From a virus (lineage: Duplodnaviria > Heunggongvirae > Uroviricota > Caudoviricetes): a stretch of 43,121 nucleotides of DNA. Position numbers and translations under genes: made by a program. The notes under the pieces are model-generated. The model was not told the DNA's origin and did no database searches. It saw only the letters and a list, made by a program, of their open reading frames with translations. The DNA is taken from the IMG/VR virus record IMGVR_UViG_2529292921_000020. The stretch is one strand, 5' to 3'. Shown here in pieces: positions 6,194 through 22,500 of this stretch; position 1 is the first letter of the stretch, and each line of letters opens with the position of its first letter.

Positions 6194-6840
6194 TTATTTA
6201 ATAGCTCCCGTTCGTGTTTTCTCTTGTTAATGGCATCTTCAGTAAATACAGGGTTACTGATAGTGACACCAATTTCAAAACAACCTTCAGACGTATTAAC
6301 GTTTGGTAATAACGTTTCCATTATCGCGTCCTCAACAATGAATTTTGTGATGTGGTGCCTGGTGCCTCCAGGTGACGTTAACCAGTTAACAATTAACGCC
6401 GGATACAGAGAATCCACCCATAACACTGTTTTTGGTTTTAACTGTTCCGCGTGCGCTCAGCCGCATTCACCGCATCACAAAATTCACTTTAAAAACGGCG
6501 GCAGAGCAGTCACGGAGTAAAACTGATACCGCCAAACGTCACCAGAAAATTGATAACAGAGGGCGTTGCAGCGGGGTTGTCGCTTAAGCGTATGGTCAAC
6601 CTGACAACCCGGTGTCCTCAACGGGGAAGGAATAACCCCGCCATACTTACCGCCGCGCCATTTCGCGGAGTGCCACAACCGGAAGCGCACGGTCGAACTA
6701 AATTTAACGACACCGTACAGAGAGACCAATTTCGCCGTGCGCTTTCGCGTTATGCCCTGACTTTTCAGGGACATATCCTTTCAGTAAACTGTCAGTGCCG
6801 GATGTTCACCCGTGTCCGGCGCACGCACTCCACCTGACCC

Positions 6841-13964: not shown

Positions 13965-14304
13965 TTCCTTAATTTTCCCTTAACAATTTAGGGTGCTAAA
14001 CTTTTTTGCGCAGTTTACATAAAAAAATAGTGCGTACGCAAAAACTATCTAACATGATGAGCTTTAACCGGGAAATTTGTATATGTTGTGAGCATAAAGT
14101 TGGCTGAGAAATCTAAAACGGGTAGAATGACTGCGGGTGCTTGAGGCTATCTGTCTCAGGCATGAACACCAAAAGGCAGATAGAGAAAAGCCCCAGTTAA
14201 CATTACGCGTCCGGCAAGACGCTTAACATTAATCTGAGGCCATATCTATGCTCTACACACGTAGGTTAGCCTCTTACGTGCCGAAAGGCAAGGAGAAGCA
14301 GGCT

Positions 14305-14460
14305 ATGAAGCAGCAAAAGGCGATGTTAATCGCCCTGATCGTCATCTGTTTAACCGTCATAATGACGGCACTGGTAACGAGGAAAGACCTCTGCGAGGTA
14401 CGAATCCGAACCGGCCAGACGGAGGTCGCTGTCTTCACAGCTTACGAACCTGAGGAGTAA
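14305..14460 (+). CDS. hokD: Hok/Gef-family type I toxin (HokD/RelF-like), with overlapping upstream mok-like frame from 14248
   Basis: MKQQKAMLIALIVICLTVIMTALVTRKDLCEVRIRTGQTEVAVFTAYEPEE, near-identical to my recollection of E. coli HokD; upstream leader has inverted repeats (CTATCTG / CAGATAG). Confidence 0.8.
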   Translation: MKQQKAMLIALIVICLTVIMTALVTRKDLCEVRIRTGQTEVAVFTAYEPEE

Positions 14461-15967: not shown

Positions 15968-16327
15968 ATGCTCATAGATTTGGTTTTACCTTACCCGCCG
16001 ACGGTGAACACTTACTGGCGACGCCGTGGCAGCACATATTTTGTATCAAAAGTCGGTGAGCGTTATCGCCGTGATGTGGCGCTTATTGTTCGCCAGCAGC
16101 AACTGAAATTAAACCTGTCCGGAAGGCCGGCAATAGAAATTATTGCAGAGCCACCGGATAAGCGCCGTCGTGACCTGGACAATATCCTGAAGGCACCACT
16201 GGATGTACTGACGCATGCGGGGCTGCTCATAGACGACGAGCAGTTTGATGAAATTAATATTGTGCGCGGTCAGCTTGTTCCTGGTGGGCGGTTGGGGATA
16301 AAAATCACAGAACTGGAGTATGCATGA
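15968..16327 (+). CDS. rusA: Holliday junction resolvase RusA
   Basis: 119-aa ORF; conserved RusA motifs (RRRDLDNILKA, LIDDEQ, GGRLGIKITE). Confidence 0.85.
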   Translation: MLIDLVLPYPPTVNTYWRRRGSTYFVSKVGERYRRDVALIVRQQQLKLNLSGRPAIEIIAEPPDKRRRDLDNILKAPLDVLTHAGLLIDDEQFDEINIVRGQLVPGGRLGIKITELEYA

Positions 16328-17013
16328 ATAACCAGTATTTACAGTTTGTTCGTGAGCAACTCATGATTGCCACCGCCGATTTGAGTGGATCAACAAAAGG
16401 GCAGCTTGAGGCCTGGCAGGAGAATGCCATGTTTGATACAGGGCGTTACAGGCGTAAAAAAATCCGGTACCGCGATGAAGTGACTGGAAAAATGATAACG
16501 CGGGATAATCCACCAATCCCGGGAAAGCAATCGCTGGCGAAGGGGGCGTCAATTCCTCTCGTCAGTCCGGTTGAGTTTTTGACATCATCGTGGCGGCGGG
16601 CTGTTCTGTCTCTTGAAGAACATCATAAAGCCTGGTTGTTGTGGTGTTACAGCGGGAGTATTTGTTGGGAATATCAGATCGCGATAACACAGTGGGCGTG
16701 GAATGAATTTAATACTCAATCCGGTACCAGAAAAATTGCTGGGAAAACGCAGGAACGCCTGAAAAAATTAATCTGGCTGGCGGCGCAGGCAGTAAAAGCA
16801 GAACTTTTTGGTGGGGAAGGTTATGAATATCAGGAGCTGGCATTACTGGCGGGAGTGACAACTAAAAACTGGTCCAAAACATTTACTCGTCACTGGGTTG
16901 CAATGAAACACATTTTTCACCGACTGGATAGTGAGGCTTTATTATTTGTAATGAGAACACGTTCAAAACAAAAGGCGGCATTTTCAAAGCAAAGTGTTGC
17001 AAAAGTAGATTGA
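16324..17013 (+). CDS. Late-gene antitermination protein Q-like
   Basis: 229-aa ORF directly after rusA and before the promoter, terminator and tRNA-lysis region, the canonical Q position; family assigned by synteny. Confidence 0.6.
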   Translation: MNNQYLQFVREQLMIATADLSGSTKGQLEAWQENAMFDTGRYRRKKIRYRDEVTGKMITRDNPPIPGKQSLAKGASIPLVSPVEFLTSSWRRAVLSLEEHHKAWLLWCYSGSICWEYQIAITQWAWNEFNTQSGTRKIAGKTQERLKKLIWLAAQAVKAELFGGEGYEYQELALLAGVTTKNWSKTFTRHWVAMKHIFHRLDSEALLFVMRTRSKQKAAFSKQSVAKVD

Positions 17014-17077
17014 AAGGCATATATTTCATGCAAATCTGATATTTTGCCGATTTTGTACGTGATGGCAAAATCAAACA

Positions 17078-17104
17078 AAACCCGCCCACAAGCGGGTTTT
17101 TTTG
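17078..17104 (+). terminator. Rho-independent terminator downstream of Q (tR'-like)
   Basis: AAAACCCGCCCACAAGCGGGTTTTTTTG: GC stem plus T7 run. Confidence 0.65.
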
Positions 17105-17170
17105 TGCCACTTATCTCGGATAGACATGGTGAATGCGCTGGTGGAGGAGATAAGGGTGATTTTTGTATGC

Positions 17171-17199
17171 TTGCAACATTGATTTCGTAACGTTATTAT
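17171..17199 (+). promoter_or_regulatory. Sigma-70-like promoter upstream of the tRNA cluster
   Basis: -35 TTGCAA (17171-17176), 17-bp spacer, -10 TATTAT (17194-17199), about 10 bp before tRNA 1. Confidence 0.55.
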
Positions 17200-17208
17200 C
17201 CTGCGCCC

Positions 17209-17284
17209 GGCCCTTTAGCTCAGTGGTGAGAGCGAGCGACTCATAATCGCCAGGTCGCTGGTTCAAATCCAGCAAGGGCCACCA
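17209..17284 (+). tRNA. tRNA with CAT anticodon (Met or lysidine-modified Ile2; ileZ-like position), CCA encoded
   Basis: Hand-folded cloverleaf: acceptor GGCCCTT / AAGGGCC, anticodon loop CTCATAA, T-loop TTCAAAT, 3' ACCA. Confidence 0.8.
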
Positions 17285-17285
17285 A

Positions 17286-17361
17286 CCGCCACTAGCCATC
17301 AGGAAAGAGCGTCAACCCTTTAAGTTGAGTGTGCGAGGTTCGAGTCCCCGGTGGTGGTCCA
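17286..17361 (+). tRNA. tRNA-like gene with atypical D-arm and anticodon loop (argN-like position); anticodon uncertain
   Basis: Acceptor CCGCCAC / GTGGTGG (one G-U), T-arm CGAGG-TTCGAGT-CCCCG, 3' TCCA; anticodon loop reads CCTTTAA with C at position 33. Confidence 0.5.
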
Positions 17362-17374
17362 TTATCGGTATTCT

Positions 17375-17448
17375 GCGTTGTTAGCTCAGCAGGACAGAGC
17401 AATTGCCTTCTAAGCAATCGGTCACTGGTTCGACTCCAGTACAACGCG
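17375..17448 (+). tRNA. tRNA-Arg (anticodon TCT, reads AGA); CCA not encoded
   Basis: Acceptor GCGTTGT / ACAACGC, D-arm AGCTCAGCAGGACAGAGC, anticodon loop CTTCTAA, T-loop TTCGACT. Confidence 0.8.
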
Positions 17449-17576
17449 CTACACTTATTTTCCCGGCTCGCTTTTGCGGGCCTTTTTTTTAAATGTCTCA
17501 CAATTCAGACGGTTGACAGTTGTCTGTTTTGCGGGGAGTTTGTTAAGTAAGCGACTCGTCAGAACCGTATTGATAT

Positions 17577-19148
17577 TTACTGAGAGCTCAGATCAACTTT
17601 CCAGGGCAACAGATCGCGTACCCGGTTTGCCGGCCAGTCCTGGATATGTTCAATGACGTAACGCAGCCACTTTTCTGGCTCCACATTGTTCAGACGGCAT
17701 GTGCCGATCAGCGAGTACAACACCGCCGCATGTTCACCACCGCTGTCGGAACCCGCGAACATCCAGTTTTTCCGGCCTACGGCCACTCCCCGTAAGGCGT
17801 TCTCTGCGATGTTGTTGTCGATTTCCACCCAGCCATTACTGCAGTACACGTTCAGTGCATCCCACTGTTTCAGCAGGTATGCGAACGCTTTTGCCGTATC
17901 TGAGTGACGCGACAGTGTTTTCATCTGTTGCTGTATCCAGTCATACAGTGACTGCATCAGTGGCGCGGCTCTGGCTTTTCTTGCCGCCAGACGCTGTTCT
18001 GCTGAACAGCACCGGACCTCTGCCTCGATGGCATACAGTTCACCGATACGCTGCAGGGCTTCCGTGGTGATGTAGGTGGGCGCTCTTGCATGCACATCGT
18101 GGATTTTTCTCCGGGCATGAGCCATACACGCGGCTTCCGTTATTCTGCCGGATTCGTATAACGCCCGGTAACCACCGTAAGCATCGGCCTGAAGCACACC
18201 GCTGTAACCGGCCAGGTGATTTTGTGGATGGATACCTTTCCGGTCCGGACTGTACGCGAACCAGACCGCCGGGGGCATCTGTGAACCGGCGTTACGGTCA
18301 TCACGGACGTAGACCCACAGCCGGGCTGTCCGGGTTTTACCGCTGCCCGGCTCCTGGACCGGGACGGGGATATCATCAGCATGGACTTTACCGGGCATCA
18401 GCACATACTGGCGCAGGACGTCATACAGCGGCTCCAGCAGTTCAGCAACAGCACCTGTCCAGCGCCCCAGTGTGGCACGGCTCAGCTCCACGCCCTGACG
18501 ACGGTATATTTCTGACTGGCGGTATAACGGCAGATGGTCTGCATATTTCCCGGTGACAACATGGGCCAGAAGCCCCGCTCCGGCATAACTGCGTGCAATG
18601 GGTTTTGAAGGTACTGGTGCCTGCACGATATGGTCGCACCGGCAACAGGCCTGTTTCGGACGTTGTGTTTCGATAACCTTAAAGGCGCTGCTGATAAGCT
18701 CCAGTTGCTCTGACACATCACATCCCAGAGAACTGAGTTCACCACCACAGGCAGGACAGCATTCCTCTTCCGGCCGGATAACCCGGGTTTCACGGGGAAG
18801 TGAGGCCGGTAACGGTTTACGGGCTGAAGACTGGCGCAGGGCGGATGGCAGTACCGGGTCATATTGCTCACCCAGCGTTTCCGCCATTTCTTCCTGAAGT
18901 GCGCTGATTCGCTCCTGTGCTTCCTGTATCTGCCGTTCGGTTTTTGCACGAAGTTTTTCTGAGCTTTTACCGAACTGCATACGTTGCAGTTTCGCAACCA
19001 GCGCCTTCAGCCGGTTGATTTCGGAAGCATAAGCCGCCACCCGCTGTGAGAGCAGGCGGTTGTATTCAGCCATCTGGCGGATGGTGTCCTGTTGCGTCTG
19101 CAACAGTGCCCGCAGGCGGGCGTTCTCATGAGCAAGTGAGGTGTCCAT
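17577..19148 (-). CDS. IS66-family transposase (TnpC)
   Basis: 523-aa ORF with N-terminal coiled coil, Cys-rich zinc-binding region and DDE core typical of IS66 transposases. Confidence 0.85.
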
Positions 19149-19167
19149 ATCCTCACTTTACAACGGG

Positions 19168-19515
19168 TTATATGCGGATTCCAGCGCGTTCCGTTCGTTT
19201 CGGGTGCTTCCAGTTGATACCTTCAAGAAGCATGGATAACTGAGCCGGAGTAAGGTGCACCTTGCCGTCACGGGTGACTGGCCAGACGAAGCGGCCCCGC
19301 TCCAGGCGTTTGGTGAAGAGGCACAGTCCGTCACTGTCAGCCCACAACACTTTTATCTGGTCACCCCGGCGTCCGCGGAAGATGAACAGGTGTCCGGAGA
19401 ACGGGTCATCCTTCAGGACGTTCTGAACTTTTGATGCCAGGCCGTTAAAGCCATTTCGCATATCGGTGATACCTGCAACCAGCCAGATACGCGAACCTGC
19501 AGGGAGAGATATCAT
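19168..19515 (-). CDS. IS66 accessory protein TnpB (Orf2)
   Basis: 115-aa ORF MISLPAGSRIWLVAGITDMRNGFNGL..., characteristic IS66 Orf2. Confidence 0.8.
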   Translation of the reverse strand: MISLPAGSRIWLVAGITDMRNGFNGLASKVQNVLKDDPFSGHLFIFRGRRGDQIKVLWADSDGLCLFTKRLERGRFVWPVTRDGKVHLTPAQLSMLLEGINWKHPKRTERAGIRI

Positions 19516-20192
19516 CAGTGGCTGCTCCCTTTTATTTCGCGGATAAGTGTCTGTAATAACGCCGGCGTCAGTTTACCTTTAAGCCTGAGAGTTCCGGCCG
19601 GCAGAACCAGCTCACAACACAGACTGTCGGACGGTGTATTTATCTGCTCTGGTTCCTGTGCGGGGGCCGGGATTTTATTATCCGGCTCCGGCGTTAACGT
19701 CACGGGAAGCAGTGCCGGCATATTTTTTCCGGAAGGCAGCAGGCCACCTTTCCGGTATTGATGGCGCCAGTTGAAGAGCAGGTTATCGTTGATTCCGTTT
19801 TCCCGGGCGATCTGCGCCACACAGGCTCCGGGCTGCAGTGACTGCTCCACTAAGGCGATTTTAAACTCATAAGGGAAGTTGGGCCGCCGGGGACGTTTTT
19901 TTACCACGGGGGCTTCGGATATAACGGTGCTTTCAGGACGTACGACTGGTACCGTGGAAAATTGTCCGTAAAGGCAGGCATCAAGTTCCTGCTCCGACAT
20001 GCCTGCGGGCAAAGGCCACGAAAGGCCAGCTCTCCGAAAGCGCACGAACATACTACAAACTGTTGATTTTGGTACACCCAGGCGACGCCCGGCCACAACC
20101 CGGGGTAAATGTTCTTCAAAGTGAAGACGTAAAGCTTCAGTGATCCAGGTCCGGTGTTTCATACGATAGTGTCCATTAAAAATGATGGACAT
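19515..20192 (-). CDS. IS66 accessory protein TnpA (Orf1)
   Basis: 225-aa ORF with N-terminal HTH, first gene of the IS66 operon, coupled to TnpB. Confidence 0.7.
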   Translation of the reverse strand: MSIIFNGHYRMKHRTWITEALRLHFEEHLPRVVAGRRLGVPKSTVCSMFVRFRRAGLSWPLPAGMSEQELDACLYGQFSTVPVVRPESTVISEAPVVKKRPRRPNFPYEFKIALVEQSLQPGACVAQIARENGINDNLLFNWRHQYRKGGLLPSGKNMPALLPVTLTPEPDNKIPAPAQEPEQINTPSDSLCCELVLPAGTLRLKGKLTPALLQTLIREIKGSSH

Positions 20193-20646
20193 TATTTTTG
20201 TAGAGCCGGAGGAAACAGACCAGACGGTTTAAATGAGCCGGTTACTTTGTTAAAAGAAACTGGCATGGTGAATCCCCCTGTGCGGAGGGGCAATCAGCGA
20301 GTAGGTATATGGGATAATCGCGGATTCAGGTGCTGGTACTGAATTCACCGGGAGGCACCCGGCACCATGCAATGGCACATAGCGCCACTCTCCAGCCCCT
20401 CTCCGGAGGGGCTTTCTTATGGACAAAAAAAGCCCGCGCAGGGAGACGCGGGCGGCAAGGAATAAACAACAAAACGTGAAGTAATATTTCAGCTGGCGAA
20501 TAATATCCGACAGTAATCACTCTGCGCAATAGCGCGGCCTTTTTCGTATTGCGGACTGTTGTCTCTCTTCTGCCATTGTCCTGTAACTTCCGGACTTCAG
20601 CCCGCTCCTCATTTTACTCACAATATTATCCCGGCCGGGAGGATTC

Positions 20647-22500
20647 ATGGCATTTAAATACTATGATGTTGTCAGGGCGGCGTCGCCGTCAGACCTTGCG
20701 GAAAAGCTGACACATAAACTGAAAGAGGGCTGGCAGCCGTTTGGTAGTCCGGTGGCCATAACCCCTTATACCCTGATGCAGGCGATTGCAGCAGAAGGTG
20801 ATGTGGTCGTCAGTGGTGCAACTGAGCCGGACTGGTTCTACGTGGTTGTGCTTGCCGGACAGTCCAACGGCATGGCCTACGGTGAAGGGCTTCCGTTACC
20901 GGATTCTTACGATGCTCCGGATCCGCGCATTAAACAGCTGGCGCGCCGCAGCACGGTAACTCCGGGTGGAGAGAGTTGTACGTATAACGACATCATCCCG
21001 GCTGACCACTGTCTGCATGATGTGCAGGATATGAGTACGCTGAATCATCCGAAGGCAGACCTGAGCAAAGGGCAGTACGGCTGTGTCGGCCAGGGCTTAC
21101 ATATTGCCAAAAAACTGCTCCCGTATATCCCGAATAACGCGGGGATCCTGCTGGTACCATGCTGTCGTGGTGGTTCGGCATTCACCCAGGGCGCGGAGGG
21201 GACATTCAGTGCGGACGCGGGGGCCAGCCAGGATTCGGCGCGCTGGGGGGTGGGTAAACCGTTATATCAGGACCTGATTGCGCGCACTAAAGCTGCATTA
21301 CAGAAGAACCCGAAAAATGTGTTGCTGGCGGTGTGCTGGATGCAGGGAGAGTTTGACATGAGCGCCGCCACCTACGCACAGCAACCTGCGCTGTTTACAG
21401 CCATGCTGAAGCAGTTTCGTGCTGACCTCACTGTGTTTAACGCGCAGTGTCATGGTGGCAGTGCTGTAAATGTGCCGTGGATTTGTGGTGACACGACGTA
21501 TTACTGGAAAAATACATACGCTACCCAGTACGACACCGTGTACGGCGGGTATAAAAACAGGGAGAGTGAGGGCGTTTATTTTGTGCCCTTCATGACAGAC
21601 GGTAACGGCGTCAATACCGCCACTAACGCACCGGCAGAAGATCCGGATATTCCGGCATCAGGATATTACGGTGCGGCATCGAGAACGAATGGAAACCAGG
21701 TATCATCAAACCGCCCGACACATTTCAGTTCATGGGCGCGCAGGAGCATTATTCCGGATCGTATGGCAACCGCTATTCTGAACGCAGCCGGGCGCACCTC
21801 AGCTTTCATCAGTGGTAAGGCACCGGAAATCAAACCCTCGCCCGGCGGCAACACGCCATCGGGGCCGTCTGAAGATGCATCCGTACGCACAATCTCCCTG
21901 TTGCCGACAGCCGGAGAGGCTGCTGCGCAGGGCTGGACCATTAAGGACGGCGGAATTCAGTTGTCGGGTGGTGTATTTAAGATCGCCAAGCAGAGCAATA
22001 AAACCTGGTCCCTGATGCATCCGGTGGATGACGCAGTCTCCCTGCTGACACGGGGTGGCAGACTGAGCTGTAAGTTTCGACTGTCAGGCGCACTGACCAA
22101 CAACCAGTTCGGCCTGGGAATTTATCTGTATACCGATGTAGCGTTACCTGACGTCGTGGCGATGACCGGGACTGGTAACCCGTTCCTGATGTCGTTCTTC
22201 ACCCAGACCACAGACGGCAAACTGAATCTGATGCATCACAAGAAAGCAGGAAACACAAAGTTGGGCGAGTTCGGGAATTACAGTAATGACTGGCAGACGC
22301 TGGAACTGGTGTTCACCGCCGGCAGTGCCACGGTTACTCCGAAACTGAATGGAGTGGCTGGCCCGGCATTCCAGGTCATAAAAGACAGTCTGACACTGGG
22401 GCTGAATGCGCTGACGCTGACGGATATTACCAAAAATGCAGCGTATGGCGTTGAGATAGAAAGTCTGGTGCTGGAGATAAATGCACCGGCATCATCATAA
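20647..22500 (+). CDS. nanS: Phage NanS-p-like sialate O-acetylesterase (DUF1737 N-terminus plus SGNH-type hydrolase)
   Basis: 617-aa ORF; N-terminus MAFKYYDVVRAASPSDLAEKL..., esterase block VVLAGQSNGMAYGEG; sits downstream of the Q-tRNA region where Stx phages carry this gene after stxAB. Confidence 0.7.
   Translation: MAFKYYDVVRAASPSDLAEKLTHKLKEGWQPFGSPVAITPYTLMQAIAAEGDVVVSGATEPDWFYVVVLAGQSNGMAYGEGLPLPDSYDAPDPRIKQLARRSTVTPGGESCTYNDIIPADHCLHDVQDMSTLNHPKADLSKGQYGCVGQGLHIAKKLLPYIPNNAGILLVPCCRGGSAFTQGAEGTFSADAGASQDSARWGVGKPLYQDLIARTKAALQKNPKNVLLAVCWMQGEFDMSAATYAQQPALFTAMLKQFRADLTVFNAQCHGGSAVNVPWICGDTTYYWKNTYATQYDTVYGGYKNRESEGVYFVPFMTDGNGVNTATNAPAEDPDIPASGYYGAASRTNGNQVSSNRPTHFSSWARRSIIPDRMATAILNAAGRTSAFISGKAPEIKPSPGGNTPSGPSEDASVRTISLLPTAGEAAAQGWTIKDGGIQLSGGVFKIAKQSNKTWSLMHPVDDAVSLLTRGGRLSCKFRLSGALTNNQFGLGIYLYTDVALPDVVAMTGTGNPFLMSFFTQTTDGKLNLMHHKKAGNTKLGEFGNYSNDWQTLELVFTAGSATVTPKLNGVAGPAFQVIKDSLTLGLNALTLTDITKNAAYGVEIESLVLEINAPASS

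Follow-up and report, generated by a model that had tools for sequence, protein, structure and literature searches.

Phages that encode Shiga toxin 2 (Stx2), among them 933W, VT2-Sakai and PA42, carry a cluster of three transfer RNA (tRNA) genes, ileZ-argN-argO, between the antiterminator gene Q and stx2; the gene names reportedly come from Plunkett et al. 1999. Other phages carry tRNA-Lys variants that neutralize the defense systems PARIS and PrrC (PMC11464382, PMC12409363, PMC11555353). Here we analyzed a tRNA module in a stretch of 43,121 nucleotides (nt) from a virus of the Caudoviricetes (IMG/VR virus record IMGVR_UViG_2529292921_000020), which we call the window. Positions 17171 to 17490, directly 3' of Q, form a compact stable-RNA operon with a sigma-70-type promoter, three tRNA-like genes (genes 1 to 3) and an intrinsic terminator. 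The module resembles the Stx2-phage cluster in its place between Q and the late genes and in having a promoter and a terminator of its own, which confirms the original prediction, made from the sequence alone, of a three-gene cluster syntenic with that of Stx phages. The same prediction considered the identity of the middle gene unclear. We found that gene 2 is a one-base-deletion derivative of a lineage with a UUU anticodon that is annotated as tRNA-Lys when its D stem is intact. We hold it to be the most probable reading, though by no means a secure one, that the window contains the known tRNA module of Stx-type lambdoid prophages and that its middle gene is a co-transcribed tRNA relic, probably still excised from the precursor but no longer decoding.

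The cluster of the window (351 nt) is 100% identical to the one in Escherichia coli O127:H6 E2348/69 and, taken as a whole, 87% identical to that of Stx2 phages such as PA42. Gene 1 is the same in PA42 and in the window, and gene 3 differs at six positions. The middle gene of the window has the anticodon UUU instead of UCG, a C at position 33, two compensatory changes in the anticodon stem and a one-base deletion in the D stem, and it is preceded by a spacer of one base compared with 7 to 9 bases in the Stx2-phage cluster. The window has no stx genes after the module and instead carries an insertion sequence (IS) of the IS66 family, and its gene 3 lacks an encoded CCA.

The middle gene and its lineage

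As the original prediction described, the acceptor and T arm of gene 2 are good, its D arm is poor and position 33 is C. The acceptor stem, CCGCCAC/GUGGUGG, is paired at 7/7 positions including one G.U (G3.U70, at 17288/17355), and the anticodon stem, UCAAC/GUUGA, is paired at 5/5 positions around the loop CCUUUAA, which places C33 at 17318 and the anticodon at 17319-17321. The T stem has four of its five pairs, the middle one being an A51.C63 mismatch (17336/17348); its loop, UUCGAGU, is canonical, as is pair G53-C61, and CCA is encoded at 17359-17361. Gene 2 has U8, A14, G18G19 and A21, but not a D stem of four pairs: U12 is deleted (between 17296 and 17297), so only G10-C25 and C11-G24 are in register and a third pair requires a bulged A23. 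Among the sequences gathered, U33 was present in 143 of the 145 distinct predicted tRNAs outside the UUU lineage, whereas gene 2 has C33.

There was no match of gene 2 to the Rfam tRNA model (RF00005, gathering threshold of 29 bits), even at E <= 10 in a search of 451 nt; argN scores 54.8 bits with this model. The sole match within the clan was to tRNA-Sec, with 15.7 bits and an E-value of 2.4, which is noise, and we rejected gene 2 as a selenocysteine tRNA. The allele is unannotated by RefSeq in all 30 best-matching genomes, and one GenBank phage record from a different annotation pipeline labels it tRNA-Lys.

The identity of gene 2 is 77.9% to argN and 57.5% to the host tRNA-Lys, and gene 2 is hence a homologue of argN and not of the host gene; the low second value also led us to reject it as a host-derived lysT. 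Between argN and gene 2, pair 7:66 has changed from U-A to C-G, 3:70 from G-C to G.U and 51:63 from G.U to A.C. In the anticodon stem, 27:43 has changed from C-G to U-A and 30:40 from G-C to A-U, U12 has been deleted and the anticodon loop CUUCGAA has become CCUUUAA. Is gene 2 then simply the orthologue of argN, a tRNA-Arg with an anticodon that was misread? It occupies the same slot between the same flanks with 78% identity to argN. However, its loop is unambiguously C-C-U-U-U-A-A inside a perfect five-pair stem, and ARAGORN reports the anticodon tcg (Arg) for the gene of PA42 and ttt for that of the window. Moreover, position 35 is U in gene 2, and C35 is a major identity element for the arginyl-tRNA synthetase. 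A misread tRNA-Arg is thus refuted by the sequence, and we consider the orthologue reading scarcely credible. The comparison with argN drawn by the original prediction holds for slot and homology but not for decoding equivalence, because the anticodon is UUU and not UCG.

We compared the gene with sampled viral contigs, of which at least 120 hold the 3' end of gene 1 and at least 120 more hold a UUU-type anticodon arm. The middle slot contains either argN(UCG), canonical in 933W-like phages, or a member of the UUU lineage, or a wreck. The UUU lineage is about 78 to 80% identical to argN(UCG) and has kept the cloverleaf through five compensatory pair changes. With 16 argN-type and UUU-type alleles aligned, standard cloverleaf pairs fill 97.3% of the cells, and both sides have changed in pairs 4:69, 7:66, 27:43, 30:40 and 51:63; the number of such changes dropped to zero when the 3' partners were slid by 1 to 3 columns. 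The five both-sided changes argue that the argN and UUU lineages diverged under selection for tRNA structure, with a switch of the anticodon, and indicate that the UUU lineage was once a real tRNA and that gene 2 is not a chance resemblance.

The alleles of the UUU lineage form a series. The intact form has the loop CUUUUAU with U33 and perfect stems, scores 53.2 bits with the Rfam model and is annotated as tRNA-Lys in RefSeq; it was present in 1 viral contig, 2 metagenome contigs and about 20 complete E. coli genomes. The common form (loop CCUUUAA with C33, A51.C63, intact D stem) scores 44.4 bits, is also annotated as tRNA-Lys in RefSeq and is present in at least 120 viral contigs, where host-like Thr(UGU) and Gly(UCC) genes usually come next. 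The common form without U12, in contigs L112 and L301, has no Rfam match. The window allele lacks U12 and has G3.U70 in addition; it is followed by argO and was found at 15 of 126 sampled loci. When the cloverleaf is imposed, its energy is -27.0 kcal/mol for the intact form, -22.3 for the C33 form, -17.3 for the C33 form without U12 and -15.4 for the window allele, the cloverleaf of which is about 12 kcal/mol weaker than that of the intact form. Alleles without U12 have a minimum-energy fold that is 7.9 kcal/mol more stable than the cloverleaf; in the structurally intact tRNAs compared, this difference is 0 to 4.5 kcal/mol. Imposed-cloverleaf energies were used because minimum-free-energy folding alone was uninformative, yielding no cloverleaf even for canonical argN.

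The C33 tRNA-Lys allele in the Ile-Lys-Thr-Gly arrays of E. coli prophages (NZ_CM173951.1; phage vB_EcoM-606R7) is 97.4% identical to gene 2. Both have the anticodon arm UCAAC-CCUUUAA-GUUGA, A51.C63, the T loop and the upstream gene 1, but the array allele has an intact GCUC/GAGC D stem and G3-C70, is recognized by the Rfam model and annotated, and is followed by Thr(UGU) and not by Arg(UCU). The intact U33 form in the two-gene Ile-Lys array (L009, L348 and L350) is 88% identical to gene 2 and has the same anticodon stem and UUU. It differs from gene 2 by its U33, its perfect T stem, its complete D stem and a compensated U-A pair at 4:69, and its cloverleaf is the minimum-energy fold. A scan of genome contigs with TCAACCNTTTANGTTGAG, which has 16 specified bases, gave chance matches, as shown by a uniform distribution at its two free positions; the relevant records were limited to one from E. 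coli and one from Shigella. Our literature searches found no published description of the C33 lineage or its expression.

Decay of the middle slot and possible roles of its gene

We audited the structure of middle-slot and argO alleles at all stems and at U8, A14, G18, G19, A21, U33, G53, T54, T55, C56, A58 and C61. Among the matches listed, the middle gene was intact at 38 of 118 loci (32%) and argO at 84 of 101 (83%). Among the wrecks, which arose independently, are genes whose anticodon arm has been replaced and whose T loop is degenerate, genes that have lost the anticodon arm, and argN/argO fusions. At three loci (L022, L049 and L095) the 5' half of argN is joined to the 3' half of argO at the GCCTTC shared by their anticodon loops, a chimera presumably made by recombination between neighboring tRNA genes. 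Another locus, L031, has a middle gene with an argN-type body and the loop CUUCUAA, in which a single change has turned UCG into UCU, giving two Arg(UCU) genes in tandem. Anticodon point switches evidently recur in the module.

In the C33 clade, the damaging changes are the loss of U12, U8C, G52A, G66A and one multiply mutated allele. The other changes are five C-to-U transitions that leave G.U pairs, some changes at unpaired positions and one C63U that restores A51-U63. Five pair-preserving and two or three pair-breaking transitions are indistinguishable from neutrality. The evidence leans toward a window allele that is no longer under selection for tRNA structure, and relaxed selection on the prophage would agree with the presence of an IS66-family element between the module and late genes.

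According to the relic reading, the ancestor of gene 2 was a real tRNA, a homologue of argN, that acquired the anticodon UUU. Gene 2 differs from the intact form by four lesions: U33C, G51A (giving A51.C63), a D stem that lacks U12, and C70U (giving G3.U70). Because the acceptor stem, the T arm and the CCA are intact, gene 2 is probably still cut out by RNase P and the 3' trimming enzymes, and its excision would also free the 3' end of gene 1, one base upstream. We infer that the precursor is processed in this way and that gene 2 has lost its decoding function. Generally, tRNA pseudogenes and punctuation elements in polycistronic precursors are like gene 2 in combining a sound acceptor stem and T arm with a defective core.

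Several observations weigh against a relic. Gene 2 has an intact acceptor stem, anticodon stem and T loop as well as G18G19, A14, A21 and CCA, and a three-pair D stem with a bulged A23 is possible. ARAGORN accepts it as tRNA-Lys(TTT) at 17286-17361, so that the outcome raised by the original prediction, rejection of the middle gene by tRNA predictors, came about with Infernal/Rfam and in RefSeq annotation but not with ARAGORN. The C33 forms far outnumber the U33 form (at least 120 viral contigs compared with 1, plus 2 metagenome contigs), and one C33 subclade has restored the T-stem pair to A51-U63; for these two reasons, the C33 lineage may be under some selection. Window-type clusters with at least 99% identity are present in 222 complete E. 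coli records, which could be due to prophage spread or to retention. The sampled loci are also interrelated and, therefore, their counts are not independent samples.

Could the gene be kept for something other than decoding? Gene 2 might act as a punctuation element that recruits RNase P, so that gene 1 matures at its 3' end and gene 3 on its 5' side, or as a decoy that binds tRNA-targeting enzymes, and we regard such a role as unlikely, though it is the alternative to which we give most weight. Only one base (17285) lies between the CCA of gene 1 and gene 2, and RNase P cleavage at gene 2 would hence directly trim gene 1. The window allele has kept its acceptor stem, T loop and CCA, and the anticodon-arm wrecks at other loci also retain a fully paired acceptor and CCA. 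Overexpressed viral tRNAs that inhibit the PARIS nuclease AriB by competition were considered in a study of PARIS (PMC12409363), in line with a decoy. However, the acceptor helix is not strictly protected, as many argN-type alleles have acceptor mismatches (A6.A67 in at least 14 loci), some loci have lost the slot through argN/argO fusion or carry a two-gene array, and a segment of 76 nt inside a small operon can persist without selection.

PrrC cuts 3' of U33 (PMC2610378), and a phage tRNA-Lys rescues infection from PrrC170 (PMC11555353). AriB reads U36AAUC|A41 together with U16 and also targets Thr(UGU), and T5 tRNA-Lys escapes AriB by means of U39A, A41C and U16C (PMC11464382, PMC12409363). 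Gene 2 might accordingly be a working, if atypical, tRNA-Lys(UUU) that sustains lysine decoding when PrrC or AriB cut the host tRNA-Lys, which we consider improbable. We give marginally less credit still to the broader proposal that the whole C33 UUU lineage, including the window allele, is a counter-defense tRNA of temperate phages that arose from an argN-type anticodon switch and serves as a lysine decoder or as a decoy.

Some features agree with these proposals. C33, the hallmark of the lineage, sits at the bond that PrrC cuts, and C33 forms greatly outnumber U33 forms. Gene 2, like its lineage, reads U36AAGUU41 and has C16; in a sequence-level test with published criteria (PMC12409363), it thus lacks both the AriB motif and the U16 needed for cleavage. 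AAA is not a rare codon, and codon supply leaves a UUU tRNA unexplained. In the sister loci the neighboring gene is Thr(UGU), the other prime target of PARIS, and in five of these loci it has become UUU itself. The C33, AriB-motif and Thr-neighbor matches are, at the level of sequence, suggestive coincidences, and the same pressure could explain why the Thr(UGU) gene turned UUU in some prophages. In the five loci (L257, L273, L287, L291 and L317), the host-like tRNA-Thr(UGU), third gene of the Ile-Lys-Thr-Gly array, acquired UUU by a G35-to-U change and also carries A26G; these prophages therefore have two genes with a UUU anticodon. Their middle gene has its T-stem pair back to A51-U63 and its discriminator changed from U to G.

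Other features speak against a working counter-defense tRNA. Gene 2 lacks U12, has A.C at pair 51:63 of the T stem, which affects EF-Tu binding, and carries U73 in place of the A73 of tRNA-Lys. The covariance model rejects gene 2, and its cloverleaf lies well above the minimum-energy fold. U33 is near-universal outside the lineage, and its replacement usually lowers decoding efficiency. The Thr gene of the sister loci retains the host-type UAAUCA site and U16, and the Ile-Lys-Thr-Gly array is hence not a set of resistant variants. Within the series, the window allele is the most damaged member. The tRNA-Lys(UUU) of T5 and the tRNA-Lys that rescues from PrrC170 are like gene 2 in being phage-borne, with UUU and with an anticodon stem-loop and position 16 that depart from the host's at the sites read by AriB. 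These, however, are structurally sound, experimentally tested tRNAs of virulent phages, whereas gene 2 is damaged, known from sequence and about 58% identical to the host tRNA-Lys.

Module layout, promoter and neighboring elements

Table 1. Features of the tRNA module and its flanks (positions in the window)
Feature	Position	Strand	Evidence
Antiterminator Q gene, 229 amino acids (aa)	16324..17013	+	Pfam Phage_antiter_Q, 305 bits, E = 3.5e-91
Putative pR'-like late promoter (TTGCAA-17-TATATT) that overlaps the end of Q	16997..17025	+	Consensus scan, 9/12; position relative to Q and to the following hairpin
Hairpin rich in G+C between runs of A and T, terminator-like on either strand; candidate tR'	17077..17104	.	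Scan match on the - strand
Module promoter: -35 TTGCAA (17171-17176), 17-nt spacer, -10 TATTAT (17194-17199)	17171..17199	+	Consensus scan and conservation
G+C-rich discriminator CCTGCGCCC, between -10 and the tRNA 5' end	17200..17208	+	Sequence and conservation
Gene 1, CAU-anticodon tRNA, ileZ-type (tRNA-Ile2)	17209..17284	+	ARAGORN, Rfam, RefSeq
Gene 2, degenerate tRNA(UUU)-like gene	17286..17361	+	ARAGORN Lys(ttt); no Rfam tRNA match
Gene 3, tRNA-Arg(UCU), argO-type	17375..17449	+	ARAGORN, Rfam, RefSeq
Intrinsic terminator ending the module, GGCTCGC-TTTT-GCGGGCC and T run	17465..17490	+	Scan; kept in phages PA42 and Stx2_14040
IS66-family insertion sequence just past the terminator (outer boundaries approximate)	17547..20192	-	Pfam DDE_Tnp_IS66 on an open reading frame (ORF) of 523 aa
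tnpC of the IS66-family element	17577..19148	-	ORF list
tnpB of the IS66-family element	19168..19515	-	ORF list
tnpA of the IS66-family element	19515..20192	-	ORF list

Genes 1 and 3 are, by their sequences, canonical and match ileZ and argO of Stx2 phages. Gene 1, with the sequence of ileZ of phage PA42, scores 72.5 bits with the Rfam tRNA model and is annotated as tRNA-Ile in RefSeq; its CAU anticodon is of the ileZ type, which reads AUA after lysidine modification. Gene 3 scores 68.1 bits and is annotated as tRNA-Arg. Its 3' end (17446-17449) reads ...ACAACGC-G-CTA, so that CCA is not encoded and would have to be supplied by the CCA-adding enzyme after 3' trimming; most argO alleles, including that of Stx phages, read G-CCA, and CTA was seen in about 10 of 101 sampled argO alleles. 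In the long ORFs of the window, codon use per thousand is 7.8 for AUA, 7.7 for AGA, 4.0 for AGG, 5.4 for CGA, 13.8 for CGG and 38.1 for AAA. The E. coli averages are about 4, 2, 1, 3.5, 5.5 and 34, respectively. Compared with these values, AUA, AGA, AGG, CGA and CGG are enriched (AUA, AGA and AGG roughly 2- to 3-fold) and AAA is not. This fits a role of genes 1 and 3 in codon supply, as decoders of AUA and of AGA/AGG, but gives no codon-supply reason to keep a UUU tRNA.

The original prediction described a strong sigma-70-like promoter immediately before the CAT-anticodon tRNA. We found the TTGCAA-17-TATTAT arrangement in this position but do not retain the word strong, since the hexamers match the consensus at only 9/12 positions and the support comes from conservation. 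There are 7 sites of this quality in the 2.5-kb region, compared with 2.2 +/- 1.5 in shuffled sequences; such sites are not rare there, and the hexamer match on its own is weak. However, in 46 distinct upstream haplotypes drawn from at least 120 related loci, the TTG of the -35 element, the 17-nt spacing and TATTAT are kept in 44 (as TATCAT in three of the 44). Upstream of the -35 element these loci show at least four unrelated sequence contexts, in one of which a terminator hairpin abuts the -35 element. Constant hexamers and spacing amid unrelated upstream sequence argue that the promoter travels with the tRNA module, and it is this conservation, rather than the consensus match, that is the real evidence for a promoter.

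Transcription from this promoter, which we infer, is expected to start 2 to 4 nt before the mature 5' end of gene 1. The G+C-rich discriminator is similar to those in tRNA and rRNA promoters under stringent control, and by analogy the module promoter may be regulated in this way too. The promoter would drive one short precursor that stops at the intrinsic terminator. Upstream, the putative late promoter overlapping Q would be followed by its own terminator, a hairpin that reads ACCCGC-CCACAA-GCGGGT on the + strand before seven T and that would halt unmodified late transcripts ahead of the tRNAs. In a lysogen the tRNAs would thus be made from their own promoter, and after induction the Q-modified polymerase coming from the late promoter would probably read through. 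Q is also the RefSeq annotation in the identical segment of E2348/69.

The IS66-family element parts the tRNA module from the late genes. Related genomes give it ISCro1-like names, and we looked for its terminal repeats but could not define them. Near-identical prophages carry three different insertion sequences just past the same tRNA terminator, namely the IS66-family element in the window, the IS4-like ISEc13 in E2348/69 and the IS110-family ISEc20 in a PPompW prophage (compare L001 4441-5814 and L003 2884-4342), and in each of the three the IS parts Q and the tRNAs from the late genes. The site downstream of the terminator is a possible insertion hotspot. Of the region 16300-20700, at most 86% is covered by any complete genome in the collection. 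A stretch of 56 nt at 17491-17546 (TTAAATGTCTCACAATTCAGACGGTTGACAGTTGTCTGTTTTGCGGGGAGTTTGTTAA), between the terminator and the IS66-type end, recurs beside a truncated middle gene in contig L103.

Further small RNAs (sRNAs) are encoded nearby and elsewhere in the window. An Rfam match to the STnc100 sRNA (20234-20424, + strand, 137 bits) lies just upstream of an ORF of 617 aa (20647-22500), which matches a DUF6645 protein annotated in E2348/69. STnc100 is present in one to four tandem copies in related loci, and a copy in PA42 overlaps the AsxR/AgvB anti-sRNA region. A hok/sok-type antitoxin RNA is encoded at 14135-14310 (+ strand, 117 bits), with hokD annotated in the matching genome, and the DicF sRNA at 6496-6547 (- strand, 72.5 bits). 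The hok/sok-type RNA and DicF are typical cargo of Qin- and Rac-like lambdoid prophages.

Implications for phage tRNA modules

In the Stx-type tRNA module, turnover and decay are much faster in the middle slot than at the neighboring genes. For annotation we recommend the label tRNA-Lys(UUU)-like pseudogene for the middle gene of this widespread module, instead of argN or a functional tRNA-Lys. By itself the finding is of little weight, and the lead worth keeping is the whole C33 lineage and not the copy in the window: temperate E. coli phages carry a lineage of UUU tRNAs whose anticodon arm is unlike the host's and which have C33, a very rare feature. If the better-preserved alleles of this lineage resist PrrC or PARIS, tRNA-based counter-defense would extend from large virulent phages to common prophages of pathogenic E. 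coli.

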